From positions 28,024,001 to 28,088,000 of the forward strand of contig CM060731.1 in assembly GCA_030704615.1 (NCBI GenBank): DNA of 64,000 nt, given 5' to 3'. Shown here one piece after another: positions 1,120 through 60,629 of this stretch. A program made the position numbers and the translations under genes. Under the pieces are notes generated by a model. The model had not been told where the DNA came from. It saw only the letters and a program-made list of their open reading frames with translations, and made no database searches. Position 1 is the first letter of the stretch; each line of letters starts with the position of its first letter. The DNA comes from Takakia lepidozioides. Lineage: Eukaryota > Plantae > Bryophyta.

Positions 1120-2126
1120 GCAGCTCACTAGCACACACCGCAAGAGGTAGATATATTGTAGAGAGAGCACTGAGGACACAAAGTTGCAGAGACTCTATAG
1201 GGCATTTGCATACTACGAGCTATGAACGTTCAACGTCTGTTCGGCCGTCATGGTGCATATGAGCCACGCATGCAATTACAAGATGACAGACTATGGCAAC
1301 TCGAGGAGGCGTACGCCATATCAAATGGGAACAAGAAAATGCTTTGCAATTGCACTGAATGTCATGGATCCAAATGGCAGTTGTTGGAGACACTGAAGAA
1401 GCACTACCTCAAACATAAGAGGGATCCAACTTTGCGCAGCTGTACTATTCCGGTACATCTGCAGGAAGTACACTGTCCTTCAGGACTTAGCAATCTCCAA
1501 GTTTGAATTTTGAAACCATTTTGGTGTGGTAGTAGTAGCCATAACTTCACCACTCCACATGTCAAAAGTTGATTGACGAGTTGTAGTCATGTAGTTGTGT
1601 CTATGACTGCCCTTTATACACATGTCGATATGTCGTTGGCTAGTTGTAGTCGTGTAGTCATAAACACATATAGGAACATGACTACGTCACTAGAACTATC
1701 TGCCATGTGTCACAATGTTATTGCTCAAATCGAAGTGATGTAGTGATAGCCGTGACTACATTTGTCCACATGTCATAATCTACATATATTGTGAATGAAC
1801 CGTGGGAAACACGAGATGCAGGGACATGTTGATTCTGATGACGAGGACTATCGGGCTGAGTTTCGGCAGGGGCCTAATGAAAGGGAGAACAATACGGATC
1901 ATGAAGGTGGTGTGGAGGCAGAAATTCAACGAGCATTGCAGGATGCTTTTGAGTTTGCGGATGCAAACAGAGAGGATCCGATTAATGGTGGAACTCGGGC
2001 CGAAGACAGCCCCAACGAGGAAGAATCCATGGACAATGCAGAGAATGCAGAGAATGGCCCAAACCTGAGTCACGGAGTTGACCCCAACTACGATACGCTA
2101 TTTCGACAATCTCAGTGTAAACTCTA

Positions 2127-2301
2127 TGTCGTGCGCATACATATCGCTACCCAACTACATCGCTGTCCAAAAAAACACACAACACATGTGCACACCACAC
2201 ACTAGTATACCACTAGTCCACCACTAGTCCAACCACTAGGCTACAACTAGTCAGTCACTAGGCTGCCACTATGCTGCCTATGGCAGTCACTAGTCCACAC
2301 A
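2127..2301 (-). repeat. LTR segment Y (U3-like), terminal copy, 175 bp
   Basis: Direct repeat of 2632-2810 differing by one substitution and two small indels. Reads TG…CA. Confidence 0.95.
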
Positions 2302-2302
2302 A

Positions 2303-2810
2303 TGATAAAGAAGAAGAATACAAGCACAAGCTCATGCGAGCTCACAAAGCTGAAGCATAAACTCATGCATATATAACCTCATCACTCAAATACAAGTCAA
2401 GCCAAGTGCACCCCACGCCATGGGGAATCCACACTACGGCGCCATAGCTAGGCGCGGTGAGGCTCAACTCGAGAAAGATGAGCCTTCTGCGCTTGCCGTG
2501 AAGATAACCACTCCAGGGTCTAAATCTGCCTTGACCCCTGGATTGACACTTGGGCCAATCCCAAATGTCAATATGTAAAAGCTAGCTATTTCCTAGCTAG
2601 TTTCACACTAGTGGTAAAATAACTTGACAGCTGTCGTGCGCATACATATCGCTACCCAACTACATCGCTGTCCAAAAAAACACACAACACATGTGCACAC
2701 CACACACTAGTATACCACTAGTCCAGCCACTAGTCCAACCACTAAGCTACAACTAGTCAGTCACTAGGCTGCCACTATGCTGCCCACTATGGCAGTCACT
2801 AGTCCACACA
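2303..2810 (-). repeat. Complete internal LTR = Y (2810-2632) + GC + X (2629-2303), 508 bp
   Basis: On the minus strand it begins TGTGTGG just after the PPT and ends CTTTATCA. Contains the palindrome GACAGCTGTC at 2626-2635. Confidence 0.9.
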
Positions 2811-2822
2811 ATCGCCCCCCTA
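2811..2822 (-). promoter_or_regulatory. Polypurine tract of the DNMT-Gypsy
   Basis: Minus strand reads AGGGGGGCGAT immediately before TGTGTGG (start of Y). Confidence 0.75.
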
Positions 2823-3070
2823 GCTGGTGCTTAGGTCCCTCTAAGTCCAGGTAGCCACAAGATGTGATAGTGACCATAGCCTCACTAAGTCCTCCACGAC
2901 TATCCCTACTACACTCAAACTCGATAGATCAAGAGGCCGGGTGCAAGAGTTGCCCCATCGTTAGTTGTCGTCTTGCAACCTGTGAACTTGAGCTTGGGAT
3001 CTCATGTATTGACTCCTATGAGCTTGGCCTCCCATGTCTTGTTAGCTACCTCCAGTCATGTCCACTGCCA

Positions 3071-3289
3071 CTATCCCAAGCAGTGTGGACACAACCAATC
3101 TCCGTCAGGAACCTTCTCAAGAGGTGGTGTCAAGCATCCCATATGCCAACCCCTTGAGCATCGATCACACACCAGCATGGTGGCTGCCCATTTGGCAGAC
3201 CCACAGAGCATGCACCTCAAACCTGCAGGTACCACTGCCAAGTTTGGGTCAACTCTGCCATCAACATTGGAAGGTGACATGGCGCACAA
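3071..3289 (-). CDS. PHD finger (C4HC3) at the integrase C-terminus, 1-nt frameshift from IN
   Basis: CMLC…MLVCDRCSRGWHMGCLTPPLEKVPDGDWLCPHC. Confidence 0.9.
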   Translation of the reverse strand: MCAMSPSNVDGRVDPNLAVVPAGLRCMLCGSAKWAATMLVCDRCSRGWHMGCLTPPLEKVPDGDWLCPHCLG

Positions 3290-4360
3290 TTACGCACATG
3301 GTCCTTCCAAGTCATGCCATCCCGACCCTCCAAGATCAGGACCCCTGAGGGCAACACCTCTCGAACCCTCAGAATAACACGCCCTGCAGTAACATCCAGA
3401 GTCGTAGGAGCAGTCTGCTGCAAATAAACATAGTCATCAGGGCTAAACCTCGGAACCCCAGGACGATATCCTCTACCACGTATAGTGGCATACCTCAACG
3501 TATCACGGTGCTGTGCAATGGCAAGGTTCTCAAAAGCCATGGGCATGACTTTCTTGAACAACTCTGCACGCTGATCACATGCACGTACCCACACGTCCGG
3601 GTCGTCAAGGTTAAGGACTTGAGCAGTGTCCCTACGAATGGCTGCAGGCAAATCCGGCTCTCGGCCAAAGAGAAGGAAATATGGTGAGAAGGAGGCAAGT
3701 GATGCTTGTTTGCTGAACCTGTAGCCCATGGCTAACCAAGGAACCTGAAATCCCAATCTCCTAGGTGTCCCTTCTGCAAGCCATACTTGCGCAAACCCCT
3801 CTTCACCGTCTGAACAACTCTCTCTGCTAAGCCATCGGCCTTAGGATGATCCCGAGAAGTGGTGCGGTGGTCTATCAAGGCTTTATCACACAAAGCCTGA
3901 AACTCCCCAAAAACTCTCTCCTTGGTCCGTGAGTACCTCAGCTGGAGCACCAAATCGGCTAAGCACACGATCCAAGAATGCATACGCAGCCCCCTCACTA
4001 GCCTTGTCAGGCAATGGAACCAACTCAATCCACTTGGAGAAGTGCTCCACCATCACCAACACATATTTGTGGTGGCGCATAGTCAGTGGCAACGGTCATG
4101 CGAAGTCAAGACTCCACCTGTAGCCCAATCCCATGATTGGTAAAGGATGCAACTGTGGTGTAGGGGCGTTGAATGAAGCACGCACCCTGTCACACACATC
4201 ATGCACCTAGCCACGAACTGTTGCACCTCTGTATGCATACCACGCCACCAATACTGCCCCTGCAGTAAACTGTGAGTGCGTCGCACTCCAAAATGCCCCA
4301 ACTCCTCATGGGCATGCCGCACTAACCGTGCACGCTGTGTGGGGTGAGGCACAATCCTCA
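3217..4360 (-). pseudogene. DDE integrase (HHCC zinc finger + rve core), frameshifted
   Basis: HEELGHFG…YWWRGM…CMMC; VMVEHFSKW; LTDQGE; DGLAERVVQTVKRGL; FSPYFLLFGREP. Confidence 0.9.
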
Positions 4361-4629
4361 CCCAACCATCCTCCCACACTCGAAGTAGGTGTATCCCCTC
4401 CCACTTGAACCTCTTGGCTCGTTGCAGGATCCGATCCATCTCCCTGGCAGTCACAATGGCTGCCGTGTCTCCCGTGCGGAGGTAGTCCAACACAGCCGAA
4501 TCCTCATGTATATCTCTGGCACCACCTAGCTCATCACTAGCCTCAGGGTCCTCAGACACTCCGTCTACAGTCATCCCTGTTGTAGGTCCAATCTGACCTC
4601 CCGATGCCAAGATACACAAAAATGCAGAT

Positions 4630-6090
4630 GCGTGCCATCCCTGCACCATCTCCTCGTCCGTCTCACCATGCCACCGAGCTCCAGTGTCATCCTGCTGGCT
4701 CATGCATGGATTGCGACTCAATCCATCCGCATCCCGATTGACCAAACCCGGTTGATGCACAACCTGAAAGTCATACTCATGGAGTATAAGTGCCCACCGT
4801 GCAAGCTTCCCCATAAGCTTGTCTGACTCCATCAACCACTTGAGTGGCTGGTGATCCGTGACTAGGGTGAAAAGATTGCCGTATAGATAGCACCTGAAGT
4901 GTGTCACGGCCCACACTGCAGCTAAGCACTCTCCCTCATATGAGTTGTACTTAGCCTCTGCAGCGTTGTTCGAGCGGCTAGCGTAAGCCACTACGAACTC
5001 TCTTCTCTCATCATCCACCTGTGTGAGCACCGCTCCAAGCCCCAACATGCTCCAATCCGTATGCAACTGAAAGGGACGCCCCCTGATAGGTCGTCTCAAG
5101 ATAGGCGCCGAGGTCAACCTCGCCTTGAGCTCTTGAAAAGCTCGTTCCTCCTGCTCATCTTCCCACTGCCACTCCTGGTCCACCTTGGTCAGCTTGGTTA
5201 GAGCCTTTGCAATGGTACTAAATCCCTTGACAAACCGTCTATAATAGTTTGCCAACCCCATGAAAGCTCGAACTCGGCTCACATCCGTGGGGCGTGGAAT
5301 TTGTGCAATGGCCTCTACCTTAGTTTGCTATACCCCCAATCCTCCATGATATATCATGTGACCCAGATACTCAATCTGGTTGTGGAAAAACTTGCACTTC
5401 CCCGGATGCAACTTCAATCCGTGCACTCTCAAGCACTCCAATACCACCTGAAGGTGTCTCTCATGCTCCTCCATCGTAACACTAAAGATGATGATGTCAT
5501 CTATGTAGCACCGAGCAAAGTCCACCCCTGCTAGAATCCTATCCATGACTCTCTGAAACTCTGCAGGAGCATTCTTAAGCCCAAATGGTAAGAACCGCCA
5601 ATGGTATAGGCAATCCTTGCCGTGCTCATTGATCCCCCAGAGTCGTCTTCTGCTTGTCCGCCGCCTCCTTGATTGGCAACTGGTGATATCCGGATCGTAA
5701 ATCCAAAGTGCTAAAGGCCTTAGCATGCCCGATGGCATCAAAGATCTCCTCTGGTGTTGGCATGGCATACTTATCGGACTTGGTCTGACGATTTACAGGC
5801 CGGTAATCACCGCACATACGTCTCTCCGTCCAATTGCCATAGACATCCTTCTTGGCTGGCATCACTGTGGCTGAAGCATACTCTCCACCAGAGAGCTCCA
5901 CCAAAACCTGCCTCCCAGAGATCTTGAGTCCTCATCTGAATCAAAGACCTCTCCATGTCACTGTATCTATAGGGTCTCCGAAAGATTGGCGTGTCAGTGG
6001 CCAACTCAATACGGATCTCTTGACCCTTCAGTGCTCCCAAGTCCTTCAAACTGAAGGCAAAGCAATTCCTGTAAGCCCTCAGGAACACCG
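4630..6090 (-). pseudogene. Gypsy reverse transcriptase and RNase H, frameshifted
   Basis: RMCGDYRPVN; LDLRSGYHQ; LPFGLKNAPAEFQR; YIDDIIIFS; LHTDWS…VAYASR…ECLAAVWA…TDHQPL…DADGLSR. Confidence 0.95.
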
Positions 6091-6499
6091 TATACGTCGT
6101 CTCTCTCCTCCGGTGACAAGGGTCCAATGTTAGGCTCCCAATTGTCCTCCGTAACTGCAACCTTAAGTCCAGTGGGCTTAGAGGTAGAGGACGCGTCCAG
6201 TGGTTGCTATGTTGCAACCTCTTGAGCAGTACTCCCTGCCTGCTCAGTCAATGACAAGGCCTCATCCTGCCCCATCATCTCATCCTTGAGGACCTCCTCA
6301 ACCCGAGAAGAATCCCCAACCTCATCCATCACAGCAGCCGCCTTGGCTGCCAACTCCCTCTGAACCTCGAGCACCTGTGTGCCATGGATGCATGAACCCC
6401 GTGGTCCTCACATGCTCGCCCCCACTCAATGCCTGTACCGTCTCGGTAGGCAAAGAGACCATTGAGGGAAGTGTACTCCGCACTCTGCGTTGCTCAGCC

Positions 6500-7460
6500 A
6501 GAGCCAAGCTGATAATCCAGGTCAAGCAATTGAGATCCATTGCTTGCCCCAACACTTGACGACGTGATGCCTCAGAAAGAGACGACACCGCCATGGTACC
6601 AGGGGTAAAACCCATTGCCCGCTCACGCTCGTCAGCATTAGGCTCCACTAACTGCTGCAACTGAGCATCCCACAAGAGGCTAGGTCCACTATCCGGAAAG
6701 CATGCGATCCTGGGAAGCTGAGCAGTGTAGGTAATGTTGCTCGTGGTTGACCCACCTTGTTGACCACTGCCAAAGGCGAACGGTCATCGTGTCTCACACG
6801 CTGAGACTGCCTCCCTGTGTCCAGAATGTTATCCACTGTGAGATGTGCTGGCCGCTGCACCCCATCAAATGCACGCTTGAGCAGTGCGGGTGGCATCAAG
6901 TTAGTCCCATAGCCGTGGACGATGAGCCGTGACCCCACTGTAGCTGCATCTAGCAACACTGCTGATCCAAGCCACGACCAGACTTGATGCACACTAGCCA
7001 TCACCCTGGCCCGAGAATCGCCCATCAGTGGCACATTCTCCAAGATGTATGCTGGAGATACAGCTTGATGAAGCTTGCAAGTGGCGCAAAACCCGCACCA
7101 GCTCCCAAAACAGACCCTACCTCGAGTCTCGCAATCCATTGCCATGCCCGGCTGATGAATGCCCTTGGCAAGGCCAACCTGCCACTACCAGATCAATGGA
7201 GCCAACCCGCTCCAACCTGCGCCCCAGCAACGAAATGTCTGCTGGCAAGGCCTGCTGATATCCACGAATTGCAGACACCGACAAACAACTCAGGGTACCG
7301 CTGCACCAACTGAGCAACATGGCGAAGTGAAACGCGTCGTGCAATCTCATCCCTCTCCACATACAGGTAACGCCGAACTCGTACACCTGCTTGTAACACA
7401 GCAGCCAATCGGTGCTGATCCCGCCAAACAAGTCCAGAAGACAAATGCCTTCATCCGGAT
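6500..7460 (-). pseudogene. DNMT3-like C5 cytosine DNA methyltransferase domain embedded in pol between protease and RT
   Basis: Motifs in canonical order: I LLDLFGG (~7420-7440), II YLYVE, IV AGWPCQG (~7162-7179), VI YILENV (~7032-7049), VIII AHRPRL (~6910-6927), IX/X ERERAMGF…RRQVLGQAMD. Split by frameshifts. Confidence 0.9.
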
Positions 7461-9287
7461 ACTGCCACACAATAGGTGTGGTGTCCAATGGAGACAATTG
7501 AGGTGGTCCTGGTGCAATCCCCACACTCTCCTCCTCTCCTGACGGTACAAAAGCCTCCACCCAGGCTTGTTGCACCCGTCGATCAGCATCCCGCTGCAAA
7601 TCCTTGCTCGTGCCCCACAATGGAGTCTGAGCAACCATGGTAGGCAACTCCGCCATACCATACATGTCATCATGCTCTCCCGGAGGTGGTACATCCTCTG
7701 AATGAGCATTGCCCTCAAGCAACTCTCTAGGCCAACTCACTGCCATTGTGAATGCTGCTAGTGCCGGCATCTTGCCTCGCTGGGCAACCGCAACTCCTCC
7801 TATGAACGTCACAGGGAGCTGCACACGCCGGCCCTCCCCTGACTGCCATGCAGGCCTATAGGAAGCTGACTCCTCCAAAAAATCCAGGGTGAAGCCCATG
7901 GGGTACAACACTGCCCCACCAACCAGGACATCGTATGAGACCGCGTCTGTCACAATGGCCTTGGCTCGCATCACTGAGCCATCTGTAGGGTGATCCGGCC
8001 GTAGTCTGATAGCCAACTCACGCCGTGTCATGCCCCGAGCTTGCTCCGATCCTCCCAGAGACGTCTGTATCTGGAAAGGACAAGGCTCCATATCCGCCTC
8101 CGTGAGGCCCAAGCCTGCAATAGCAGCTCTGCCCAGCATCAGTGGCTGAACTCCCGAGTCCAACAAGACCCGCAGTGGCCGGTACCTCTTGCCTGCCGGT
8201 CCACTCAAACAGAAAATGTTATCCTGGTTGTCTAACATGACAACTCCAGGTGTCACCATGGCGCGCTCAATGGCTGGCCTAGCTGGCAGCTCCATCAACC
8301 TGGCAGCTGCAGCTTGCCATGGCGCCGCCGTGGCAGTCTTGACCCTCAAATCCGAGGATCCCTCCGGCACTACACCTCCCACTATCTCCGCAGAAGATGA
8401 AGTAACCTCCCCACTCTCACAGAGTGTAGCTGCCAGCCTGAACACCTCAGCTGGTCTTACCCCCAGTGTCGCAATCATGGTAGCCGAGAACAATGGAGCC
8501 TGGCACACAGATGTGGCCGCTCCTAGCAGCACACTAGCTGCCGTAGCCTTGGCAACACTAGGTAGTGGTGCTACCAGTGTAGCTCTCCCCAATGGCATAG
8601 TAACCTCCGCCTCGGTAACAATCGGGCGAGAACTAGGTGCCATGGATGGCATCGACACTGTCTCCACCAATGTGAATGACTGAGGAAGCCTAGCCTGACG
8701 GCTTGCCTCCCCACGCTGTGGATCCAACTCCACCTCTGCACCTCGTGGCTCAGGAACTCGTGCTGCTCCTCGAGTCACGGCTGCAGCAGACTCCACTGCA
8801 CTAGTGGTAGTGCTGCCCCACACATGAATCCCATGCCTCCCATATCTCCTCCCTCAGGAGTAGGAGGTGGACCATCCGGCCTTAGAGCCGGTACCACCTG
8901 AGCTGTAGCCATGGCAGCGAGCCTCTGCTCTAGCTGCTGAAGCCGGTTGGCCATGCCTTGGTCAACACCCTGACCTCCGCGTCCTTGGCCACGTTGAGCT
9001 TGCCCTTGGCCTCGTGGCTGGTCACCTCGTCCTCTCTGGGCTGCTCCACCTCGCCCCCGGCCACCATTGTTCCCTTGGAACTGGCCTGGGCGCAACTCAG
9101 GATGCAAACCATAACACTGGGCCTCTCCATGCCCGTGCTTGCCACAATGTCCACACTGCAACTGTGCAGGCTGTGCATGTGCCGACCCTTTGCCAGTATG
9201 GAGGGGATCCAAACACAAGAAATCAGAACGACAACTCCCCCACACCAAAAACAACTCCACGGTGTTGCTCCTGCAAGGACACCCCAA
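7461..9287 (-). pseudogene. Gag C-terminus (CCHC zinc knuckle, G/R/Q-rich) and aspartic protease
   Basis: CGHCGKHGHGEAQC (ORF 8775-9287); LRVLLDSG and YDVLVGG (ORF 7117-8823). No capsid domain recognised upstream. Confidence 0.8.
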
Positions 9288-9589
9288 CCCAAACCCGGAC
9301 TAACTCTTGCCTCCACCTACGGAAAGGTCTTGGCCTAATGAGAGGGTGGAAACTACAAGGAAGAGAAGCTAAAGCAATGCCTAACCCCAACATGCCCTCA
9401 TCCCAACACTCTTCATCTCCTCTCTTTCCTCACTTGCATGACCATGGGAGTATCATGAAGATACTCCTCATACCGCCCTCCACGAGCTTCAAAATTCGGC
9501 CTTCCAAACCACATGCCAGTCCTTAGGCAGTCCACCAGTGCCTCCACGAGTCAGCACAGGCCGTCCACAGGTCAACACGGGCCACCACA

Positions 9590-10445
9590 GACCAGCACAG
9601 GCCCACACAGCTCACTGGTCACAACCGTCACAGTCCCACAGGCCACTGGGCACAGCCTGTCACAGCCCCTCATAGCCCGTCACAGCTCGCCACAGCCTGT
9701 ACAGCCGTCACAGCCCCACACGCCACTGGGCACAGCCAGTCACAGCCCGCACAGCCCGTCACAGCCCCACAGGCCACTGGGCACAGCCTGTCACAGCCCC
9801 GCATAGCCCGTCACAGCCCCACAGGCCACAGGCACAGCCTGTCACAGCCCCTCACAGCCCGTCACAGCCCCACAGGCCTCAGGCACGGCCTGACACAGCC
9901 CCTCATAGCCCGTCACAGCCCCAAAGGCCTCAGGCACAGCCCGTCACAGCCCCATAGGCCACTGGGCACAGCCAGTCACAGCCCCGCACAGCCTGTCACA
10001 GCCCCTCATAGCCCCAAAGGCCACGGGCACAGCCTGTCACAGCCCCTCACAACCCCTCACAGCCCCAACGGCCTCAAGCACGGCCTGTCACAGCCCCTCA
10101 CAGCCCGTCACAACCTCAAAGGCCTTAGGCACGGCCTGTGACAGCCCCTCACAGCCCATCACAGCCCCAAAGGCCATGGGCACAGCCTGTCACAGCCCCT
10201 CACAGCCCGTCACAGCCTCAAAGGCCTCAGGCACGGCCTGTGACAGTCCCTCACAGCCCATCACAGCCCCAAAGGCCATGGGCACAGCCTGTCACAGCCC
10301 CACAGGCCAATGGGCACAGCCTGTCACAGCCCATCATAGCCCCCAAGGCACCGGCACAGCCCGTCACAGGCCCTCACAGCCCGTCACAACCCGAAGGCCA
10401 TGGGCACAGCCTGTCACAGCCCGTCACAGCCCATCACAGCCCCAT
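9590..10445. repeat. Minisatellite of TCACAGCCC-like subunits with ~50-bp higher-order units, inside the DNMT-Gypsy leader
   Basis: Many iterations of ggcacagcctgtcacagcccctcacagcccgtcacagccccaaaggcc. Confidence 0.95.
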
Positions 10446-10899
10446 CCATGGCCGCTCTGGCAGTTTAGCCATTTCTCCAAGGGGTTTAGCCACGCCAGCT
10501 AGGGTTTGTGTCTCTTGGACTCTAGGCTTCTTTCCACCGAGCTATGGCGGCTGTGAGGAAATCAGCAAGGTATTCTTGCTCTTTCAGCTCCCACACACCA
10601 CCATAGTAGCCCTAAGCCATGAGGTGGTTGCCACAAACCAAGCCTTCTTTCTCACTTAGCCTCCCCAAACACGCCACTAAACTCAATGGCAAACAACCAA
10701 GCCCTGCTGGTTCCCAGCTCTTGTGAGCACTCATTCAAGCACTCTCCTTGGCCATAACATCTGTCTTAGAGCCTATTCCAGCCCCCTACACCTGCAGCTT
10801 CAAGAGTTGCGCTCCCTTCAAGCTTGAAGTTGAAACCCCAACTCACATAGGCACTACAAGTGCTTTTCTTTCACTCCAAGTGGAAACCAGCCCTAGACC

Positions 10900-11300
10900 T
10901 TCCATTCTAGCTCTCTAAAGCTTGAAAACAAGAGCCTCAATGGGCTGAAGGCATGCTCCACACATGCCCCACTCTCACCATAAGAGAATCAGCTCCTTTG
11001 CTTCATTTCTTGCACCCACAAACCTGAAAATACAAGCTTCAGCAGGCTGAAAGCATGCTCCACATGCCCTACAGGGAAACCAGCCCCTTCCTTCCTTTCT
11101 TGCACTCCCACACCTGAAAGTGCAAGCCTTCACCAGGCTGATAGCATGCTCCACACATGCATTGCCCTCACATAAGGGAAGTCAGCCCTTCCCTCTTCCT
11201 TGCTTGCCCTCCAAGCTTGAAGATGGAAGCTTCAATGAGCTGAATACATGCTCCACACATGCAACCTCTTCACACAAGAGATATCAGCCCCTATCTTGGC
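10900..11300. repeat. Degenerate tandem repeat (about 4 copies) with core GCTGAxxGCATGCTCCACACATG
   Basis: Core seen near 10945, 11046, 11137 and 11239. Confidence 0.75.
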
Positions 11301-11960
11301 TCCTTGGCTCCTTGATGCTCTCTAAGACAAGACCAAGCACTCCACAGCCTTTGCCAAGCTCCTGAAACCCTAAGGCTTACATTTCCAGCCACAAGACACT
11401 TCTCTTGTGGTGCAAGAACTCTTCTTCTAAGCTCTGAAACCCTAGGTGCACATTCCATGGCCTTGCCGCACCTCTTAGCTCCTGTTCCAGCCCTGCTCTC
11501 GCCATGACAAGAGCCCTCTCAATGCTGAAGCTCGAGATTGAAACCCAATCTCACCATACTCCACAAAGTGCACTGATTTGCCCCAAGCCAAATCAGCCCT
11601 TTCGCTTGGTCTTGCAATCCTTCACACAATGAAAGCTCGCATTCCCAAGTCCAGTTCTCAGCTTTGCCACCAAAGCCACTATAACCTCCTCGTGACTGGT
11701 CCTCTTCCCAATCGTGCTTGCTCGTGCATGTACACAATCTGAAACCATCAAGGTGCTCTGGAATTACCTGCAGTATGGTGCTTTCATCTCTGAAGCTGAA
11801 GATCGAATGCCAAGGTTTACCACCTCGTAACCCACATCGCCTCCGCTTCTAACAACCAAGAGCTCCACGGAGCTCCTTGCATAACAACTTGGTTTCTCTC
11901 ATTCTCAAGCAAAAACCACAAGTGCTACAACTAACTCGTATCTAGCACTCATAGATACGA

Positions 11961-11976
11961 GCTGATCTTTCTCGAG
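11961..11976 (-). promoter_or_regulatory. Non-tRNA primer-binding site, putatively self-priming
   Basis: Directly abuts the end of X and has no TGG. Inverted complement of 12142-12157 inside X (15/16 nt, 12 contiguous). Confidence 0.65.
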
Positions 11977-12303
11977 TGATAAAGAAGAAGAATACAAGCA
12001 CAAACTCATGCGAGCTCACAAAGCTGAAGCATAAACTCATGCATATATAACCTCATCACTCAAATACAAGTCAAGCCAAGTGCACCCCACGCCATGGGGA
12101 ATCCACACTACGGCGCCATAGCTAGGCGCAGTGAGGCTCAACTCGAGAAAGATGAGCCTTCCGCGCTTGCCGTGAAGATAACCACTCCAGGGCCTAAATC
12201 TGCCTTGACCCCTGGATTGACACTTGGGCCAATCCCAAATGTCAATATGTAAAAGCTAGCTATTTCCTAGCTAGTTTCACACTAGTGGTAAAATAACTTG
12301 ACA
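11977..12303 (-). repeat. LTR segment X (R/U5-like), terminal copy, 327 bp
   Basis: Direct repeat of 2303-2629. I count 4 differences, all transitions. Confidence 0.95.
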
Positions 12304-15300
12304 TCTATGAAGGGAGCTCGATCAGCCGATTTGAAGCTACTTTGCACTTGCTCAACTTGTGCACCGCCCACAAGTGCACCAATGGCTTTATGGATGAGCT
12401 TCTTGGATTGTTGCACAAAAGTTTTTTGCCGAAACAGAATTCTCTGCCGAAAACTAATTATGAAGCTAGAACTATGATTGCGAAGATGGGATTGCAGTAC
12501 ACCCAGATCCATGCCTGCGAGAAAGGCTATGTACTCTTCCGTGGGGAGGATGAAAAAGCAGAATTTTGCCCGGAGTGCAAGACATCGCGTTACATTCCTG
12601 GTCGTGGGACTGTACCCAGAAAAATACTACGACATTTCCCTGTCATCCCAAGGTTGAAACGCATGTATCAATGCAAATCAATCGCGCACCTTATGACATG
12701 GCACTTCAGACATAAGAGTCAGGATGGATTGGTTTGACATCTAGCTGATAGAAAAGCCTGGGCCCACGTTGACTCCACATTTGCGGATTTTGCTTCAGAA
12801 CCACGAAATGTACGATTTGGATTAGCCTTAGATGGAGTAAATCCATACAGTGCTCAATCCACGAGTTGGAGCACATGACCCATCCTGTTGGTCAACTATA
12901 ATTTGCCTCCATGGTTGATGACGAAGAAGTTTTTCGTCATGTTAGCACTCCTTATCCCTGGAAAGGAGTCTGTTACATCTGCGAATATTGATGTGTGGAG
13001 AGGCATCATAGCTTACGATGTTTCCCAAGCTCTCCAACAACGCCAATTCTTGCTACGGGCATTGCTGCTATGGTCAATCCATGATTACCCTGCATATGGC
13101 TTGCTCGCGGGTCAGGTTACTAAAGGTTATGCTGGTTGTCCAGCCTATGGACCCGAGGTGGATTTACAACATTTACATGCATGTTCGAAGACTGTGTTCC
13201 TGGGCCATCGGAGATTTCTTGCCCACAACCATCCGTATAGAAGATCAAGATTGTTCAATGGTGTTGTTGAGCATAGAGTGGCTCCACAAACGTAGACAGG
13301 AACACAAATAAAGAAACGTGCAATTGACCTGATTGCATGGATAGCAGCAGGGGGGAAACCAGATACGCCATCAGACCCTTCCAAATCTCACGGAGTGAAG
13401 CGATTATCAATCTTATATGCCTTGCCTTACTGGGAGGGCCTCCTCATACGGCATACGTTTGATGCTATGCATTGCGAGAAGAACTTTGCAAAAATATCAT
13501 TAAGACTATTTTTGGGGAGAAAGATACATCGAAGGTTCGGCGTGATCTTGAATTACTTGGGCTGCGTCCATCATTGTGGTTGCAATGACATCTAGACAGG
13601 GCAGATACGTTAATCATGCCTCCTACTCCTTATGTTCTGACTGAAGCTGAGTTGAAAGTTTTCTTGGACACTGTGCGAAACCTTAAAGTACCCACAGGAT
13701 ACGCATCAGCTTTCAAAAAACACGTGGTAAAGAAAAAACTATCTGGCATGAAATCACATGATTACCATGTGTTCATGTACCAAATTTTACCGCTGGCTAT
13801 TCGTGGGTTCATGGCAACAGGTGTGCGCACTACAATTTTGCGAGTATGTCGTGTATTTAGGAGGTTGTGTGCAAAAGTAGTGAATCCTGCAGAGTATGAG
13901 GAGTTGAAACATGAAGTAGTTGTTACTCTCTGTCTAATGGAGAAAGAGTTCCCACCATCATTCTTTGATGTGATGACACATCTGTTTGTCCACCTAGTGG
14001 ATGAGCTCGATTTATGTGGTCCTGTGGCATCACGTTGGATGTACCCCATGGAGCGGGCAATTAAAGAAATGAAGGGGTACGTCCGGAACATGGCAAAACC
14101 TGAGGGCAGCATGGCTCAAGGATACATTTTTTATGAAGCTCTAGGATTTTGCACGGAGTATATGGCAGGATATGATGGAACCGCACGAAGGGTGTGGGAT
14201 GCAGATGAGGAAGAATCTGTGGCCGGCGTAGTTTTGGAAGGAGCTGGCAAACCTTGGAAATTGGGTGACTTGCATGCTATTGTACACGATTACATCATTC
14301 AAAATCATCCAAGCATATCCGATATGTTGAAGTAAGTCCACACCCTTTCAGATCTGAATATTTTGTTGATTTGATCTTTTTGTACTGCCCCATGCTTAGT
14401 CTGTGTTGGCTAAATAGCCTCGACATTTTGTGCCAGGAAATATGAAGAGGAGTCCAGACAAATGGATGATTGTCCTCCATTTGCTGCTTGGCTGCCAAAT
14501 GCTGTACGAGAACATCTATCTGGAATTCAAGAACATGTGCTTGAAGATGGCGTACGACAAGAATTACTGGATCTTTCAAGACCCCCATCATATTATGCCT
14601 TGACATACAAGAGTGTGTCAGGATATGGCAACCATTACAGGGCTACATCCCCAAGCATGAACACATCGAGTATGGCATCCTTTGATTGTGGAGTCTCATC
14701 AGTTTTCAAGCATGAGACGGAATCTGTACGGTATGTGGGTCTTATCAGGGAGATTTTGCAGATTGACTATGGCACTACACGACCTTTAGTGTTTTTGTGC
14801 TCCTGGGTACGGGCCCAAAATGTGGGTCGTCAACCCAGATCAATGAAGGAAGATGATTGTGGCTTCACGTTGGTCAATTTCAATCAAATGCTACCACCCT
14901 CTGAACAGCCTTTTGTATTGCCAGTACAGGTTGATCAAGTCTTTTTCTCTGAGTGTGTGAAGGAATGACAATGGAAAGTTGTATTGGAGAAGAGCCCCCG
15001 ATCACGGAGAGTGGTGTGTGATATCTCAATTTCTATTGATGATCTCAGAAGAGTTGAAGGCTTGTTAGCTCCACAACAACTACAAGAGACATTGACTACT
15101 GGCCGAACTCACAACCGAATTTAGACAGTGACACCAGAGCAGCTGACCTCATTGTACCGACCCCCATACCGACGACGCGAGGTACAACCCCCAGTTGACC
15201 AGCAGGTCTGTCATGAAGACACAGATACCTCCACCGACGTTGAGGCTATAGTTAGTGATGATGACACAGATACCTCCATATTCACAGACACGGATTCAGT

Positions 15301-17370: not shown

Positions 17371-18093
17371 TGTCGCGCACCTCCCTTCGGTAAGCTCCCC
17401 TTCACGTCATAGATACTCGCTTTGATGCGCGCGCCTGATTCCCAACCTGGCCGCCGGGCCAACTTGGAGCTTCGGCTGCTCACCGGGACATAACGGTCCC
17501 CCTTCGCTTCCCACTAAACCCTCCACCTATTCGGGACTAGTGGAATTCCCTTTGGTAGATGGCAGTCCGGAACAGCTCCCCACTCTTTGGTCGCTTTCCG
17601 GCTCGCTCGCTTACTCACTAGTTTTTGGTCACCAACGGGCTTGCACCGTTCTCGGGGTACTACTCCCTATATATACTTCTGTAGCTGTCCGCGGGGGTTT
17701 CACAACCAGCCATGCCATTTTATGGCGAACCACCACGAAAACCCTCGACTCCCGGTGATGAGTCGCGGTGAGTCTTGGCCCACTCATCACGGCCCCTATG
17801 GACCGTGATGAGTCCCAAGACTCCCCACGACTCCCACCACGAGGTCTCCGCCCCCATGGTGAGTCCTATGCCACCCCCACTAAGTCCCGCTAAGCTACCA
17901 CAACCCCTTGTGGAGCCACCCCCACCGCACCCGGTGTGCGGGGCTCCACCTAGTGAGCGCCTCCGCCTCCTTCAGTGCCTTGGGCACTCAAGGGTGCTTC
18001 AGCCCCCCCATACCTACCGCTGCCGCTGCCCCCACCACAGGGGCAGCCCTCATGTGTCCCGACCCCCTGCCCTCAAAGCAAAGGGCCGCGACA
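17371..18093 (-). repeat. 3' LTR of the chromovirus
   Basis: Near-identical to 23972-24694. Preceded on the minus strand by the purine-rich GGTAGGGGTGTG. Confidence 0.95.
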
Positions 18094-18944
18094 CACACCC
18101 CTACCAACAGGGAGTCGATGTCCTCATCGACTTGTCCATTTTGTAGAAACGAACATCCAAGTTGTGGCGTCCCACATCAAAGAGTTTGTTTCCGCACATG
18201 GCGTCCCATGGCAAAGAACCAAACACCACACTTGACTCTACTCTCCACTAGCTTGTTCGGCCGACTTCCTCCAAGTCCCGGCCAAGGGTGGAGCCTCTCC
18301 AGCTCCTCCCAGTGCACTCTTCTTGGCCTACTTCAAGGCCAAGGAACGATCCTCCCCGAGGATCGAATCGCCTTACTGCAACAACATTGCTTGCGACCGC
18401 TCATGATGCCGCTTTTGGCATCACCTTGAGCAAGGGTTCACCTGGGACCCTCTTGACTAGGAAGATAACTTTGAACCAACGTGCGCCCCAATCACTACAA
18501 TTGGGTCCGCCTTGGAATGCTGGCCTGAGGTACGGGAACACGCCGAAGCCGCACTACGACTTCGTCCCGAGGCTACACGATTATAGTAAGTGAACGGAAG
18601 CACGTGGCTTCCGCGTTAGCCTGCACTACAAGGCAACCCCCTCGGTAGCGTATAGTTTATAGTACGCGCACGCGCCAGGTGCGCACTAGCACGTGTGAAC
18701 TCCCAAAGAAAGGCGCAAGTTTCCTTGCCCTCGGATGGGGGTCACCCGATTTCGGCACTACACAAAACACACGATTAACCCAATTTACCTCTCCCACTTT
18801 TATAAGCTGCATGCATTCTACACACTAGCCAACCATACCATGCATCACCATTCCAAACAAAATAGGACGCACAACATTTGGAATCCGTTTAATTTATAGC
18901 ACGTTTGTACAATACAAGTTTTTGCAATCGGATTCCTAAGCTAG

Positions 18945-21900
18945 CTAAGCCGGGCTAAGCATGCATTTCCTCCCCCATGCTCCAAGGTTGATGTCCCCAT
19001 CAACGCTTCTCCGCTTTTGAGGTCGTCCTTCGAAAGCTGCGACCGCCTCGGATGCGTTTCCCTTCTGAGGCACGCACCCAAGAGGCCTCCACATGATGAT
19101 AGCCCTTCCATTTGAGAGATACTCTGTTTCTCGGTTCTTGAACCTCCTTGACTTAAGTATTGCCTCCACCTCGTACTCAGGTTCATTTTCATGATCCAAC
19201 AACATAGGTGGCGGACGCAACACTTGATGCCGATTCGGACGCGCTTCATCTTTGAAGTAAGGCTTCAAAAAAGAGACATGGAATACTGGGTGCACCTTGC
19301 TGTTTGCCGGCCAGCTCCAATTCATACACATCCTCATTCATAACCTTCCGAATGCGAAAGGGTCCTGCATACGGAGGTACGAAACTTCGGACTCACTTCA
19401 GGCGGGTAGTCGAAAATTCTTGATGTTCAACCAGACCTCGTGCCTGCCTCAAACTTCACTTCCCTCCGCTTCGATCGCTTGCCTTTCATACCGTTTCCTA
19501 GCTTTGGCAATGTTGTACTTTGCGAGCTTCAAAAACGCTCGCGTTCTTCCAATACTGCCGCTACTGCCGGTTCCTCAACGTCCTGGCGGCCCAACTTGTC
19601 GGCACCAGAGGTGCTTTTCCATAGACCAATACGAAAGGGGAAACTCCCGTTGCGGAGTGTTCTGTGTATTATAACAGAACTCGCCGCGTCTAAGTGTTCC
19701 ACCCAGTCTGTTTGGTATGCCGAACGTAATGCCCGCAAGATCTGCTTCACTACGGAATTCACCCTTTTGTTGGCCGTCGGTCGTAGGTCGGAAGGCAGTG
19801 CTCATCTTCAGCCTCGTCCCCATCTTCTTCCAAAGTGCTCTCCAGAATTTACTCGTAAACTTTGGATCGCGGTCCGAGACAATATCCTCGGGACTCCATG
19901 ATGCTTAAGAGTGGGCGAAGTAAAGTCGCCCTGTCTCCTGCACCGTTGCCGTCTCCTTGGTGGGGGATGAAATGGCCCATTTTACTGAACCTATCTACCA
20001 CCACCCATGATTGCATCGAATCCTTTTGACAGCGGTCTGGAATCGGCAAGGGTTGTAACAGCCCCGCTTGTTTTTTGTACTCGCTCCGGTTTTGTTGGCA
20101 TGTGGTGATGTCTTGACATACTCCTCTGCCTCCTCCCTCAGTTGTGGGCCAGAAATACTCTTCTTCAAGAGTGCCGCAGTGCGCTTGGCTCCGCCGTGGC
20201 CCGCAAGCGGGCTATCATGGCATTCTCTCAAAGAGGAGGCATTCTGATCCCTCCCTTCGGCACGTAGAGAGCTTTGCTTATACTCGGAGCAACCCATTTT
20301 GCAAGTGGAACTGCGATTTAACCCCCATTCTCAAGTCCTGCATCACGGACTTTGCCAGCTATCCTTCTGGCAAGCCTTCTGGATCTTCCTTTGGAGCCGG
20401 TCTCGCCCTTGTAACCAACAAGAGCTGCTGCTTTCTACTTAAAGCATCGGCCACCACGTTGTCTCGTCCCCGGGTTGTACAAGATATCCACGGCGAACAC
20501 CGCCAAAGTATCTTGCCACCTAAGTTGTTTTGGGGACAACCTTGGGCTGCGTGGCAAATACTTCACCGTGGACATTGTCCGTGAACACCTTCACTGGGTT
20601 GGAACCAACATAGTGGCGCCAGAGTCAAGACAGTGCACCACCGCCTCCATTCTTCTCGTGCGTCGGCCACCGTCGCTCCACTTCATTTAGTTTCTTACTT
20701 CGTAAGCCACGGGACGTCCATCTTGCATCAGCACACACCAATCGCGAAGTCCGACGCCTCTGTATGTATCTCGAACGGACGATCGAAACTCCGGGATTTT
20801 CAAGACTGGAGCTTCCGCCATCCGCTGCTTCAATTCAGCAAAAGCTTGGCCAAAAAATGTGTTCCATACCCAGACTTTGGATTACACAGAAGGTCCGACA
20901 GCGGCGCCACCCGATCTTGGTGAAATTTCTCAAAAAACTTCCGGTAATAGGAGGTGAGTCCTAGGAAGGATCGCACTCCCGGGACCGAAGTCGGAGGACT
21001 CCCAGTCCAAGATCGCCCTCACCTTTCTGTCATCCATTTTGAGCCCATCGGTGTAATCACATGTCCCAAGAACTCCACTTTCGTGACCCCGAATTCGCAT
21101 TTTGAGCTTTGGCGTAAAACTTCCCTTCCTGCAACTTTTGGAACACCCTTTTGAGGTGCCTCCAGGGTGTTCTCCTTTTTTCGAGTACACCAAGATGTCG
21201 TCGATGTAACGATCACAAAGTCATCCAACCACTCCTGAAAAGGCTGTTCATCAGCGTGCTAAAGTCGCCGTGTGCATTAGTGAGCCCAAAAGGCATCACC
21301 AGAACTCATATGAACCATACCTTGTCCTGCACGCGGTCTTCTCCTCTCTCCTTCCGCGCACCCGCAATTTGATGATAGCCGGAGCCAAGTCGCGAATCGC
21401 GGTGAAATACTTTGCTCCTGCCCCCAACCGGTCTCGAAAAGGTTGTCGATCTGGCGAAGGGTAACGGTTTTCAATAGTCACACTATCAAAGCCCTGTGAA
21501 TGACACACATCCGCAGCGTCCCATCCTTTTGTCTGCGAATAGCACCGGGGTGCTCCGTTAAGGTGACTTACTCGGCCGGATTGTACCCCTTTGACATTAG
21601 ATCTTGAGCCGAGTCTTCAGCTCAACCAACTCCCTGTGGTCAACCGGTAGGTGCCATGGTAGGCGGTTCCGGATCCCAGATATCACCTCATCTTGTGGTC
21701 AACTCCTCTTCGCTTGGTGGCAGGCCGATTGGTAAATCCTCCGGCATCACATCATGGTATTGCTCCAAGATTTCCCTTGATCCAATCTGGGCTCGGCTCC
21801 CCATCGCCTTCTCCCTTCACTACTCTAATGTAAAGCAAAAAATTGGGCTCGTGTGCCTCCTCCACGGCCCACTCCTGCTGACAAAGGTTTATCGCCCTCC

Positions 21901-23480
21901 CACGGAATTGGGCGTTTCCGACACTCGAAAACCTCGCCACCATCCACATGGCAGCGTGACTACTCTCTGCGGCCATCTATGACCGGATTTGCTCAAAAAG
22001 GTCATCCCCAAAATGAGATCCACTCATCGATCTTCGCCAGATGGTGAAGTTCTCACCGTCCCTCCAAAACCCCCCAGTTGAAGAGGAACATCAACGCCAA
22101 CCTTGTCGCCATCTGTGTTTACTCTTTGCAGAACGCACCTCAATAGAGGCCCCCCGTCACTTGCGTGGTAGTCCCATTGTGCCGTTGCCGGGTCATGAAG
22201 GAGTACGACGCTCTATGTCCACAACAAGACACATTAGTTCCAGATATTATCCCAGACACGACAAACTGACTCCCTTTCGTAAGGCGCCAGTTTCCTGATA
22301 CAACTCACAAGAAAATTGCCTACCTTGCAAGTCCTGGCGACCACCGCTTCCACCAAGCGACTGATGGTATCTTAGACAGCGCGTGGTCGCCCGAGCATGT
22401 TAATTGCGGGGCTTCGTGCCACTTTCTTGGGCCATATGCCCGAGGCTCCCGCCAATTGAAACACACTCCATCAAGGCCGCCTTTGTCCGCCATAAGCCGC
22501 TCCACCGCTTTTCCTTCGAAAGCACGGGGTGGCGCCTTGAAGTGTGAAGGTCTCCCTCGATTTCCACGTGCCATTGTCGCCGCGTGGCTATCCCACTTCG
22601 TTTCCGGTCGGAAGGCGTTACCTTCCGCCAGGTCTTCTTGTGGTTCAGCTCAGTACGACCTTGTCTCTCACCTTAGGGACATCCGAGAAACATTCAGGCC
22701 CTCTCAATTGCCTCGTCCAAAGGTCTTGGTGTGGTTTCTCCTCCAACTCCGCCTGTTGCCCATGGGGCCAACCCCGCCACAAGTTGAAGACCCTTTTCTA
22801 GTTCTGTCATGTCACGACTTCGAGCAACAACACAGAAAGCCTGGACACCCCCGAATGTCATAGGTTTTGCTTTCAAATTCCTCATCTCTGTCGGGCAGAG
22901 CCAGGACGCGTTGAGGGGCACAACCTGTCTCTTCATCGAATTCCTTGAACCCACTCCAGTTCAAGGTTTCCGGGTGGGCCTTGGTCGTGAAGGCGTTTCT
23001 GCCACCGAGTTGAGCATAGCCCCTCAAATAGGGTGGGAGCCATTCCACCCGATCCTCGTCACTCAACATTGGCCGCACGGAAGTACTGGCTCTAGCTACG
23101 AGGAGCAAGGTGTTGAGTGCAGTTCTGATTTCGAACGCCCTCGAAGGTGCGGGTTCCTTAGGCTTCACCTTAAACTTTGTCCTTAGTGGAAGTGGCATTA
23201 GTGCCTTTCAACACGTCTTTCAACGTCCCGCCAAACTGCGCCAACAACCCTTCCCAAAAGGCTGCCGGCACAGGAGGCATCTCTTGGTTTGTCGGAGCTC
23301 TCAAGATTGCCTCGGCTCCGACTCCTCGGATTCCTCACGCTCTTGAGGGGCCTACGTTTCCGGACAACATGCATCGCTTCCTCAAATGGCTGTCGGGGTG
23401 ACACGTCGCCCCATCGGGCTCCCCAGGATCATCATCTTGGGCCGTCCGCTTTCGCTTCGGCTTGCCCGACCCCATGATGA
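18945..23480 (-). pseudogene. Heavily frameshifted gag-pol with chromodomain
   Basis: KVKPKEPAP (gag); KTACRTRYGSYEF; KCEFGVTKVEFLGHVI; HDSPLAGHGGAKRT; VVVDRFSKMGHFIP; VHPVFHVSFLKPY; EYEVEAILKSR (chromodomain). Confidence 0.9.
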
Positions 23481-23957
23481 GGCCAAGACCCAAGGACGAT
23501 GGTGACTGAAAACTCTAAGCTCTGATACAAAGTGTCGCGCAACCCCTCGGGTAGCTCCCATTCACGTCTTAGAACTCGCTTTGACTGCGCGCGCGCCTGA
23601 TCCCCCATACACTGGCCGCCGGGGCCAACTTGGAGCTTCGGACTGCTCCCCGGGACATAACGGTCCCCTTGCTTCTGCGCCAACAACCCTTCCCAAAAGG
23701 CTGCCGGCATGGGAGGCATCTCTTGGTTTGTCGGAGCTCTCAAGGATTCCTCGGGCTCCGACTCCTCGGATTCCTCCCGCTCTTGAGTGGCCTCGTTTCG
23801 GAAACATGCATCGCTTCCTCAAATGGCTGCCTCGGTGACACGTCGCCCCCATCGGGCTCACCAGGATCATCATCTTTTGGGCCGTTCCGCTTTCGCTTCG
23901 GCTTGCCCGACCCCATGATGAGGCCAATCCCAAGGACGATCGCGTACTGAACTCTAA

Positions 23958-23969
23958 GCTCTGATACCA
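23958..23969 (-). promoter_or_regulatory. PBS complementary to initiator tRNA-Met
   Basis: TGGTATCAGAGC 2 nt after the 5' LTR. Confidence 0.95.
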
Positions 23970-23971
23970 AG

Positions 23972-24694
23972 TGTCGCGCACCTCCCTCGGTAAGCTCCCA
24001 TTCACGTCATAGATACTCGCTTTGATGCGCGCGCCTGACTCCCAACCTGGCCGCCGGGCCAACTTGGAGCTTCGGCTGCTCACCGGGACATAACGGTCCC
24101 CTTTCGCTTCCCACTAAACCCTCCACCTATTCGGGACTAGTGGAATTCCCTTTGGTAGATGGCAGTCCGGAACAGCTCCCCACTCTTTGGTCGCTTTCCG
24201 GCTCGCTCGCTTACTCACTAGTTTTTGGTCACCAACGAGCTTGCACCGTTCTCGGGGTTACTACTCCCTATATATACTTCTGTAGCTGTCCGCGGGGGTT
24301 TCACAACCAGCTATGCCATTTTATGGCGAAACCACCACGAAAACCCTCAACTCCCGGTGATGAGTCGCGGTGAGTCTTGGCCCACTCATCACGGCCCCTA
24401 TGGACCGTGATGAGTCCCAAGACTCCCCACGACTCCCCACCACGGGTCTCCGCCCCATGGTGAGTCCTATGCCACCCCCACTAGGTCCCGCTAAGCTACC
24501 ACCACCCCTTGTGGAGCCACCCCCACCGCACCGATGTGGGGGCTCCACCTAGTGAGCGCCCGCCTCCTCCTTCAGTGCCTTGGGCACTCAAGGGTGCTTC
24601 AGCCCCCCCATACCTACCGCTGCCGCTGCCCCCACCACAGGGGCAGCCCCTCATGTGTCCCGACCCCCTGCCCTCAAAGCAAAGGGCCGCGACA
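23972..24694 (-). repeat. 5' LTR of the chromovirus
   Basis: TG…CA, 723 bp. Confidence 0.95.
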
Positions 24695-43642: not shown

Positions 43643-43980
43643 ACTCGCCCACGATTCTGTGATAGTGGAGAAGAGAAAGAAAATACTGTCCCCGTGCTGG
43701 GACTACGCTCAGGTTTCTTGAGGAAGTTGCACACATGCAGATGCTCTTGGATGAAGGCTCAGGATGTTTCTTGTCAGATGATGTTGAGAAAGATGTACGT
43801 CGATCAACGTTGCCAAGATCCTGTCTTCGGGCAAACAACGAGATTGTTGGATCGTATGGGAATGGAAGAGCCACCAACTGTTTGTTGAAGTTTTCGGAGA
43901 GCTGTCATGCCGGAGATAACAATCTTGCGCAGCCCTCTGCTTGAAGCGTTTTGACAGCATTGTGAATTAGGCGAAAGAAT

Positions 43981-56096: not shown

Positions 56097-57199
56097 CTGT
56101 TGTTCTTTTTTATGAATTTGAAGTAATGATAATAACTTTATGCCTAGAAATTCGACTTGTGAAGGACTTTACCTGCACCTTTTCTTGACAGTAAGCTACT
56201 TTCAACTGTGGCCTGTCTGTGAACACAACCCTCTCACTATAATGATTTGTGAGCAGTTGCACAGTTGCTCCCAGGTGTTTCCCTTTAAATACCATATGTC
56301 TGTTTATAGTTAGCGTTATCTTGGAAGTTGGCATTCTTCATTTTTTGGGAAGAGGATCTTATTTACACTAACTTCAGTTGGCATCAGATATATACATATA
56401 GATAAGAGGAGAAAATTCAGGTTGTCAATTGTGGATCATAGCAATTTTCAAAACCTCTCATGAACAAAGTCCAGATTTCCATCTTCATCGGTGGTTAATG
56501 TGTAGAAACACCTAATGTTTGCCCTACATTAACCCTAAACCCTACATAACTGCCTACATAAGCTTTGAAGTTTGAAAGGTTACATGTATACTTCACCTTT
56601 GCTTGTTTTTTTGTAGTCATAGGGTAGATGAAGTTTATGTGTGGTAATATGTTTCAATGCTTATTTACTAACAATGGGCTATCACTTATATATGGCAAAT
56701 ACATGTTATCATTCTTTTAGGTTGTTTGATTTTTTTCCAACCTCAGGTGAAGTGTGCATGTGATAGTAACCGGAACCATGGATTCCAAATACTTGAGACC
56801 ACCTCCCAACACTGAAACTAACCTCTTGCCAATAGGTATTGGATTTCAATGTTTGATTTTCAAAATCAGTACTTAAACAGGATGCGAGGAAGGGAAAAAC
56901 TGCTTTGGTGGACAGAACTTAACCGATCCAGCCCCGTTCAGTCATCCATTATGTCACTTGAGCACTTGAGAAGGTAGCCTAGTAGTTCAGTATTTGTGCC
57001 TTGCCTCTGCATAATCTGGGTGATCTTGGGTTCAATCCTTCAACCGTCCATTGGCCCCTCAATGGGCTCTGTGTTGAGCAGTAGGCTCTGTAAATTCATT
57101 AGAGGATAAAACAAACTATTTTTCTTTACTTTATCATAGTTTTCCTCCATCTTTTATGGTCTAGTTTCCAAAAACATTGTAGTGTTGTGTCATAATAAT

Positions 57200-60100: not shown

Positions 60101-60260
60101 GCTCCAACCATTGTCCCATGAATGCCCACTTTGCCATTTTTGCTATTTTTCGTGATTTTCCAGCGACCAAAAGGACTTGGAATTCCACATCTCCCTCACC
60201 GGTGCTTGGCGCCGTTGGAAAGCCCTCGACGAGGAGGGGTGCACCAACTTGGTCTCATGA
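57200..60260 (+). repeat. Modular repeat array (GGCCCAAGTG modules and CATCGAGGGCTTTCCAACGGTACC modules); left arm of a foldback-like structure
   Basis: Module caatcattgtyccaagaaagcccact…aaaagtacttgaaatt recurs near 57320, 57612, 57940 and 58840. Many gcccaagtg copies. Confidence 0.85.
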
Positions 60261-60629
60261 TATATGTATATATGTATATATACATGAGCCGTTGATACAT
60301 AATGATTCTTATCAAAGTTTTTCCACATTTTCTTAAAACATGTTCTTAAATATAGTAATAAACTGCAGCCTCGATGATCAAGTTGACAAGAGAAGTGGCA
60401 ACGAAAACCTACAAAGGCCTTACAAGCAAACAAAAAGGGGATACCACCTAGTAGCCAATAGTTGAAGTGCATAAAACAGTAAACACAAAGCGTATTGACT
60501 CTACTGTAGTTTTAAAATTGCACATACATACATTTTGAATGTACATACTCATGACAATTCATAGTATCAATATACAAAGTAATTATCCAAGGACAATGGT
60601 GAGAGAAATTGTACAATTTCAAATGACTA

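Follow-up and report, generated by a model that had tools for sequence, protein, structure and literature searches.

Gypsy retrotransposons whose insertions begin and end at a palindrome inside their own long terminal repeat

How does an integrase-bearing Ty3/Gypsy retrotransposon come to lie in a genome with its ends inside its own long terminal repeat (LTR)? The question is raised by an insertion in the bryophyte Takakia lepidozioides (assembly GCA_030704615.1, contig CM060731.1, positions 28,024,001 to 28,088,000), in a stretch of 64,000 nucleotides that we refer to as the window. The insertion is a decayed Gypsy element which reads, in minus sense, X1-PBS-internal region-PPT-Y1-GC-X2-Y2 between two copies of TCTA, where PBS is the primer binding site and PPT the polypurine tract (Table 1). 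A first-pass annotation of this DNA had described the same layout, and all of its coordinates check in the window sequence. It had also set a single T apart as a spacer between X2 and Y2, but this T actually opens Y, whose repeat covers it in both copies, so the X2/Y2 junction is a blunt join of X and Y. Four transitions are the only differences between X1 and X2 over 327 bases; Y1 and Y2 are set apart by two indels and one substitution in 176 bases.

The complete LTR behind the PPT is Y-GC-X, and its central GC (2630-2631, between X2 and Y1) lies in the palindrome GACA-GC-TGTC. As the first-pass annotation proposed, the termini of the insertion are the two arms of this palindrome with the central 2 bp lost, and this also holds across family copies. 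The insertion has TG..CA termini and a 4-bp target site duplication (TSD), within the 4-6 bp range of Ty3/Gypsy elements. In-silico excision of 2127-12307 leaves one open CACTA transposon frame (..SQCKLYEGSSIS..), followed by Tnp2 and DUF4218 domains, which bears out the proposal that the TCTA duplication restores the codons of the host transposon. A 6-bp TSD (TCTATG) was rejected since the internal copy of Y includes that TG and the relatives are best fitted by 4 bp.

Of 102 related metagenome loci, the best 80 were surveyed using the natural X and Y of one locus (L059) as probes. The loci were chosen around pol and cover about 0.8 Mb, and copies with common flanks were merged. A terminal segment was present in 52 of the 80 loci; the other 28 end within the element or belong to other LTR families. 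Seventeen of 18 independent 5' ends begin at TGTC (or TATC/TCTC) with no Y within up to 700 bp upstream, and one is cut inside X. Among the 3' ends uncut by a contig end, 26 of 30 independent ends stop at the GACA arm (10 after Y-X-Y and 16 after Y alone) and the remaining four are interrupted inside Y; locus L063 was set aside from this count. Eleven copies retain both ends, nine in the form X-int-Y (int, internal region) and two in the form X-int-Y-NN-X-Y. Exact 4-bp TSDs flank eight of these 11 copies, with 3 of 4 bases matching in two and 2 of 4 in one, while shuffled flank pairings gave a mean of 0.30 exact TSDs (maximum 3 in 36,565). No ordinary LTR pair was detected among the family copies, and none of the 17 independent 5' ends has Y before X. 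Dozens of independent sites show these termini, which bears out the prediction that the layout is standard for the family. The expected forms were only partly recovered: TGTC..GACA ends with 4-bp TSDs hold and X-int-Y-NN-X-Y was found (2/11), but the commonest form, X-int-Y (9/11), had not been predicted. Two loci, L037 and L068, were considered as one site in two forms, but this was rejected as their flanks fail to align.

Contigs of four public runs carry the window family in many copies, and it is very abundant in T. lepidozioides. No RNA dataset was listed for the stretch, a result that carries no information about its expression. In one run of this species (X4), at least 22 contigs have heterogeneous loose ends at the start of X (2629, agreement 0.4), and at least nine have uniform, PBS-type loose ends at the end of X (2303, agreement 0.97). 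The 3' end of another family (L079, 14468-15140) has the same layout, PPT-Y-GT-X-Y, with unrelated LTR sequence.

We examined conservation of the palindrome in 13 loci from genome contigs, with seven close relatives (44-91% identity), five of which reach the LTR. All five of these clade members carry GACAGCTG(TC) behind the PPT, three of them at just 44-46% pol identity, and GACAGCTGTC is kept behind the PPT in families this distant. L087 ends at a contig edge after GACAGCTG, and L082, a young copy whose Y1 and Y2 are identical, terminates at GACA after Y-GC-X-Y. The palindrome arms reach about 7 bp. Exact matches to the 10-mer number 11 in 0.83 Mb of retrieved DNA, versus 0.8 expected, and 10 of the 11 are at the LTR position, a count that is not independent as the copies are related. 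A match in L093 was dropped because it is outside the clade and within GACA-rich sequence. In 13 junctions of one family, the palindrome is altered only by G>A or C>T changes. These include the spacer variants AC, AT and GT, which were not counted as free variation; GC is kept in six of seven intact or distant loci. The fifth base of the palindrome (G5) is altered in 7/13 junctions, versus 1/13 for the C of CA and for the G of TG, which suggests that the spacer may tolerate change.

The coding content is that of a Gypsy element. Gag, protease, reverse transcriptase (RT), RNase H and a DDE integrase follow one another in Ty3/Gypsy order, and the best PDB sequence match of an intact relative (P0001) is Ty3 Gag-Pol (E 4e-98). 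The intact relative L019 has two unbroken open reading frames (ORFs), one encoding gag, protease and methyltransferase and the other RT, RNase H, integrase and a PHD finger. The three acidic integrase motifs, with the second D and the E separated by 35 residues, can be followed in the window copy across its frameshifts, so the DDE integrase announced by the first-pass annotation is borne out as DD(35)E. The chromodomain that follows the integrase in Tcn1/Tf1 elements is absent from the clade, and a PHD finger is in its place. A C5 cytosine methyltransferase in the polyprotein, a trait of KnitGypsy-Dnmt3 (see below), is present both in the window copy, as a weak match, and in L019. In these two it precedes RT, but it lies between RNase H and integrase in P0274 (a protein of L087), indicating that its position moved within the clade.

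Split direct repeats can suggest a tyrosine-recombinase element, but the Pfam profile check proposed in the first-pass annotation found no tyrosine recombinase among the matches of the window ORFs or of both L019 ORFs (L019 has no other ORF of 200 aa). Such an element is refuted for the family and is extremely improbable as an explanation of the locus, and so is an ordinary Gypsy element that was rearranged in a single event, integrated into itself or was misassembled. In favour of these readings, the flank junction of the window insertion is unbridged among the contigs listed. Against them, the same termini with TSDs are found at dozens of independent sites and in distant families, and no recombinase domain was identified; the loss of the central GC together with a TSD also argues that this was not conservative recombination. 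We consider it very likely that the integrase uses the palindrome as an LTR-internal attachment (att) site.

The element has a PBS after its 5' repeat and a PPT before its 3' LTR, as is typical of Ty3/Gypsy elements. The 12 bases of the PBS and the last A of X form the exact reverse complement of 13 bases of X (12141-12153). A 13-base complement inside X is a mark of self-priming, so on its sequence the window PBS is of the self-priming type, and a transfer RNA (tRNA) type is ruled out. Self-complements of 10-17 bases inside X were detected in seven of nine copies tested; L008 has none and L016 has only an offset match. In L063 (3246-3878), the first 180 bases of X recur in inverted form behind PPT-Y-GC-X (6.7% diverged), and this inverted copy starts exactly at the self-primer site and ends at GACA. 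This single case has the look of plus strong-stop DNA that folded back and was cut at an inverted att arm.

The joint between X and Y gives information on how the repeats are brought together. In nine of 11 copies it consists of the end of X followed directly by the first base after the PPT. The joint of L005 contains filler and a PPT remnant, as in end joining, and that of L006 is a variant; joint variants are also listed in T. lepidozioides contigs. At a column that marks subfamilies, Y1 matches the Y2 of its own copy in all 11 of 11 cases, and divergence is about the same within X pairs as within Y pairs (7.7% and 7.0% in L055), which fits recopying of Y2 from Y1 in each cycle. Together with the nine clean joints and the filler in L005, this suggests that the X/Y joint likely represents the two ends of an ordinary linear complementary DNA (cDNA), ligated anew each time. 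A joint made by RT itself, through an end-to-end jump at a shared A or PAT/Ngaro-like copying, with one obligatory intermediate opened at one site, seems to us quite improbable. The end of X and the end of the PPT do have one A in common, the layout equals that of split-direct-repeat DIRS elements as described in the part of PMC8969392 available to us, and a fixed intermediate could account for the clean joints and for the absence of a mirror form (0/17, see below). However, both PBS and PPT are undamaged and sit where ordinary LTR replication would have them, and the filler and PPT remnants in L005 resemble host end joining.

We propose that insertions of this clade start and end at the arms of the LTR-internal palindrome because the DDE integrase cuts there, probably in circular cDNA. 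The RNA would start inside X1, self-prime at the PBS and end in X2, and ordinary reverse transcription would yield a linear Y-GC-X-int-Y-GC-X. Its ends would be joined X to Y by end joining to give a 2-LTR circle, and 1-LTR circles would form too. The integrase would recognise CA-NN-TG inside the LTR and nick after CA on each strand of GACA-GC-TGTC, leaving CA-3'OH ends with 2-nt 5' overhangs that would be inserted 4 bp apart. A 2-LTR circle opened in its 5' LTR would give X-int-Y-GC-X-Y, predicted to be replication-competent, and an opened 1-LTR circle would give X-int-Y, a predicted dead end. A route of this kind, integration through a circle at an LTR-internal att site, had been put forward by the first-pass annotation; the att site is well supported by the termini, the 2-bp loss, the TSDs and the conservation of the palindrome, whereas the circular intermediate, which we think probable, is inferred. 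L081 is a whole circular contig with the order int-Y-GC-X-PBS-int and is either a 1-LTR circle or a collapsed repeat.

Several points weigh against this proposal. Its weak point is the mirror form, X-YX-int-Y, which had been predicted as a possibility but is missing from all 17 independent 5' ends even though a 2-LTR circle has two identical sites and, being symmetric, predicts both forms at equal frequency. Solo X-Y units were likewise predicted, and none was found in the 80 loci, a weak test given that these were chosen around pol. X-int-Y could instead arise after insertion, by recombination between Y copies or by recombination between X copies of the mirror form, and no site carrying both the full and the X-int-Y form was found among the surveyed copies. 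The copy counts come from one family and from short-read contigs of a few samples. The window locus is unconfirmed by raw reads, and its flank junction is unbridged among the contig pieces listed from four public runs. The circle, the cDNA ends and the cleavage were reasoned from sequence, and none has been observed. Speculatively, the mirror form might be absent because one site is preferred, the 5' site being nearer to a cDNA end as Y is short. Alternatively, mirror copies may decay to X-int-Y by recombination between their X copies, or the intermediate may not be a symmetric circle.

The same internal att site might also be used with no circle at all, although we regard this as unlikely. 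The integrase would cut the linear cDNA: with both sites cut the product would be X-int-Y, and with the 5' site alone cut and both halves held, X-int-YX and Y would be inserted together, and host repair would then ligate the unattached end of X to that of Y within the chromosome. The resulting sequences would be identical to those expected from a circle. Cutting of linear cDNA accounts for the many X-int-Y copies (9 of 11 both-ended), and the end of L063 at an inverted right arm suggests that pairing of two separate sites is possible. On the other hand, it needs repair of a chromosomal break at every productive insertion, yet nine of 11 X/Y joints are clean, and it leaves the missing mirror form unaccounted for.

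Named relatives of the window element include those of Marchantia (the nearest, 80% over 370 columns), Coleochaete, Closterium, Klebsormidium, Volvox, Tetrabaena and Haematococcus. Trees of RT-RNase H joined the relatives in one clade with a Klebsormidium methyltransferase Gypsy, with support of 99 (FastTree) and 100 (a quick IQ-TREE analysis including P0299), both fast trees being midpoint-rooted and without bootstrap. Five chromodomain-bearing pol proteins fall outside the clade, as do animal Gypsy and the locus L091 with its ordinary pair of LTRs. A Klebsormidium nitens protein with PF00145, RT and integrase (P0321) falls inside the same 99-support clade as the window element. It is 33% identical to ORF1 of L019 over 584 columns and about 46% identical to the intact relative in RT-RNase H. 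The Klebsormidium protein P0299 had no methyltransferase match, and no relative of the window element was detected in two viral-contig scans. The eukaryotic retrotransposon contigs L081-L087 sit in bacterial or archaeal genome assemblies, probably as contamination.

P0321 is presumably KnitGypsy-Dnmt3, a K. nitens element for which the legend of Fig. 4 in de Mendoza et al. 2018 gives a DIRS-like repeat structure with Gypsy domains (PMC5890265). It resembles the window clade in its Gypsy pol, its C5 methyltransferase and its DIRS-like repeats, but the account, in the portion of the paper available to us, is without termini, TSD, palindrome, priming mode, X-int-Y form or mechanism (PMC5890265). 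The supplement text searched makes no mention of KnitGypsy, TSD or circular, though the supplementary figures may show more, and within the literature searched the name KnitGypsy was found in PMC5890265 alone. The suggestion that this route is undescribed for Gypsy therefore stands in part: the A-int-B-A-B layout of an integrase-bearing Gypsy is already in print (PMC5890265), but no description of the route was found. Our literature search, which covered sources other than Repbase reports, theses and subscription journals, yielded no description of the att site, termini, TSD, self-priming, X-int-Y form, asymmetry or route in such elements. What is known is thus the layout, remarked on once in an alga with no mechanism, and the rest was not found in print. 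The Chlamydomonas element Gypsy-7a_cRei has a PHD finger but, according to its legend, a near-complete LTR pair, and was not counted as having the same layout.

Parallels with other mobile elements are partial. In IS3, IS30 and IS911 a DDE enzyme acts on two abutted ends with a short spacer in a circle. These are bacterial DNA elements without reverse transcription, and the likeness is one of analogy only. The window element has the A1-int-B1-A2-B2 layout in common with the PAT/Ngaro/TOC1 split-direct-repeat DIRS elements, in which the B-A junction copies the joined ends (PMC8969392). These elements, as far as the available part of that source describes them, lack a TSD and use a tyrosine recombinase (PMC8969392), whereas the window clade has a DDE integrase, a 4-bp TSD, the 2-bp loss, a PBS and a PPT. 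Retroviral integrases cleave palindromic 2-LTR circle junctions, and circles can feed integration, according to the sections seen of PMC1905944 and PMC4372172. This resembles the proposed route in that a DDE integrase acts at a palindromic internal site. In retroviruses, however, the site is the U5-U3 junction and the reaction is a side path giving an ordinary provirus (PMC1905944, PMC4372172); in the window clade the site is inside the LTR, the insertion encloses the U5-U3 joint and the arrangement is the norm. For at least one LTR element, circles are reported, in the available part of one study, to be the major product (10.1101/2022.09.25.509424). The Tf1/Sushi and Tcn1 chromoviruses share the self-priming PBS, the Ty3/gypsy domain order and occurrence in non-seed plants, but they have ordinary LTR pairs and a chromodomain according to the part of PMC6317226 available, where the window clade has a PHD finger.

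Table 1. Coordinates of the Gypsy element and its host transposon in the 64,000-nucleotide window.
Feature	Position	Strand	Evidence
Host CACTA transposon coding region split by the insertion (Tnp2 12879-13295, DUF4218 13589-14335)	1795..14335	+	Excision restores frame; domain scan
Target site duplication, left TCTA	2123..2126		Empty site gives back CACTA frame
Y2, terminal Y copy (PPT-proximal part of true LTR); ends GACA = att left arm, element 3' end	2127..2302	-	Sequence comparison
X2, second part of complete 3' LTR; its ..CA end abuts Y2 bluntly at 2302/2303	2303..2629	-	Sequence comparison
Intact LTR-internal palindrome GACA-GC-TGTC, putative integrase att site	2626..2635		Kept behind PPT in relatives
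Y1, first part of complete 3' LTR, adjoins PPT	2632..2811	-	Sequence comparison
Polypurine tract, AGGGGGGCGA in sense	2812..2821	-	Same tract before Y in relatives
PHD finger at integrase C-terminus	3080..3349	-	tblastn with intact relative P0001; PF00628 in P0001
RT, RNase H, integrase (H2C2, DD(35)E motifs), broken by stops and frameshifts	3265..6088	-	Domain scan, relative comparison
Protease and C5 cytosine methyltransferase region, broken	6484..8697	-	PF00145 E 0.002 in window, E 1.8e-13 in relative L019; tblastn
Gag zinc-knuckle region	9087..9191	-	tblastn with L019 ORF1; CCHC motif in window ORF
51-bp tandem array in 5' leader	9530..10450		Repeat analysis
Self-priming PBS directly after X1	11965..11976	-	Complementarity to X
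X1, 5' terminal segment; starts TGTC = att right arm; without preceding Y	11977..12303	-	Sequence comparison
13 bases complementary to PBS; predicted transcript 5' end (putative start) and self-primer	12141..12153	-	Complementarity
Target site duplication, right TCTA	12304..12307		Sequence comparison

The window contains a second Gypsy element (17371-24694) of the ordinary chromodomain type, with a 724-bp LTR pair (97%) and a 5-bp TSD, inside a MULE-like ORF. It holds a tandem duplication at 23236-24103, and its termini are likewise TGTC..GACA. Speculatively, an ancestor with an ordinary X+Y LTR may have left the att site behind as a fossil of its circle junction. Elsewhere in the window there is an intact PPR-DYW-like gene (43966-46107), recognised from its translation, and a degenerate repeat array with inverted copies (57190-63040).

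In LTR elements the linear cDNA is expected to integrate through its ends, and circles are for the most part a by-product. In the present case, an old LTR clade of chlorophytes, charophytes and bryophytes may have moved its integrase site off the cDNA ends and come to depend on an obligatory circle opened at one chosen palindrome, a third route between DDE LTR elements and tyrosine-recombinase DIRS elements; we see the case for this wider view as evenly balanced. The clade also shows how elements lacking a recombinase can come to have a DIRS-like layout. Surveys that demand two LTRs flanked by a TSD, as in the available part of PMC6317226, would miss such elements. A widespread clade with its cDNA ends inside the insertion and a conserved internal site opens DDE integration through circles to direct tests in algae and bryophytes.

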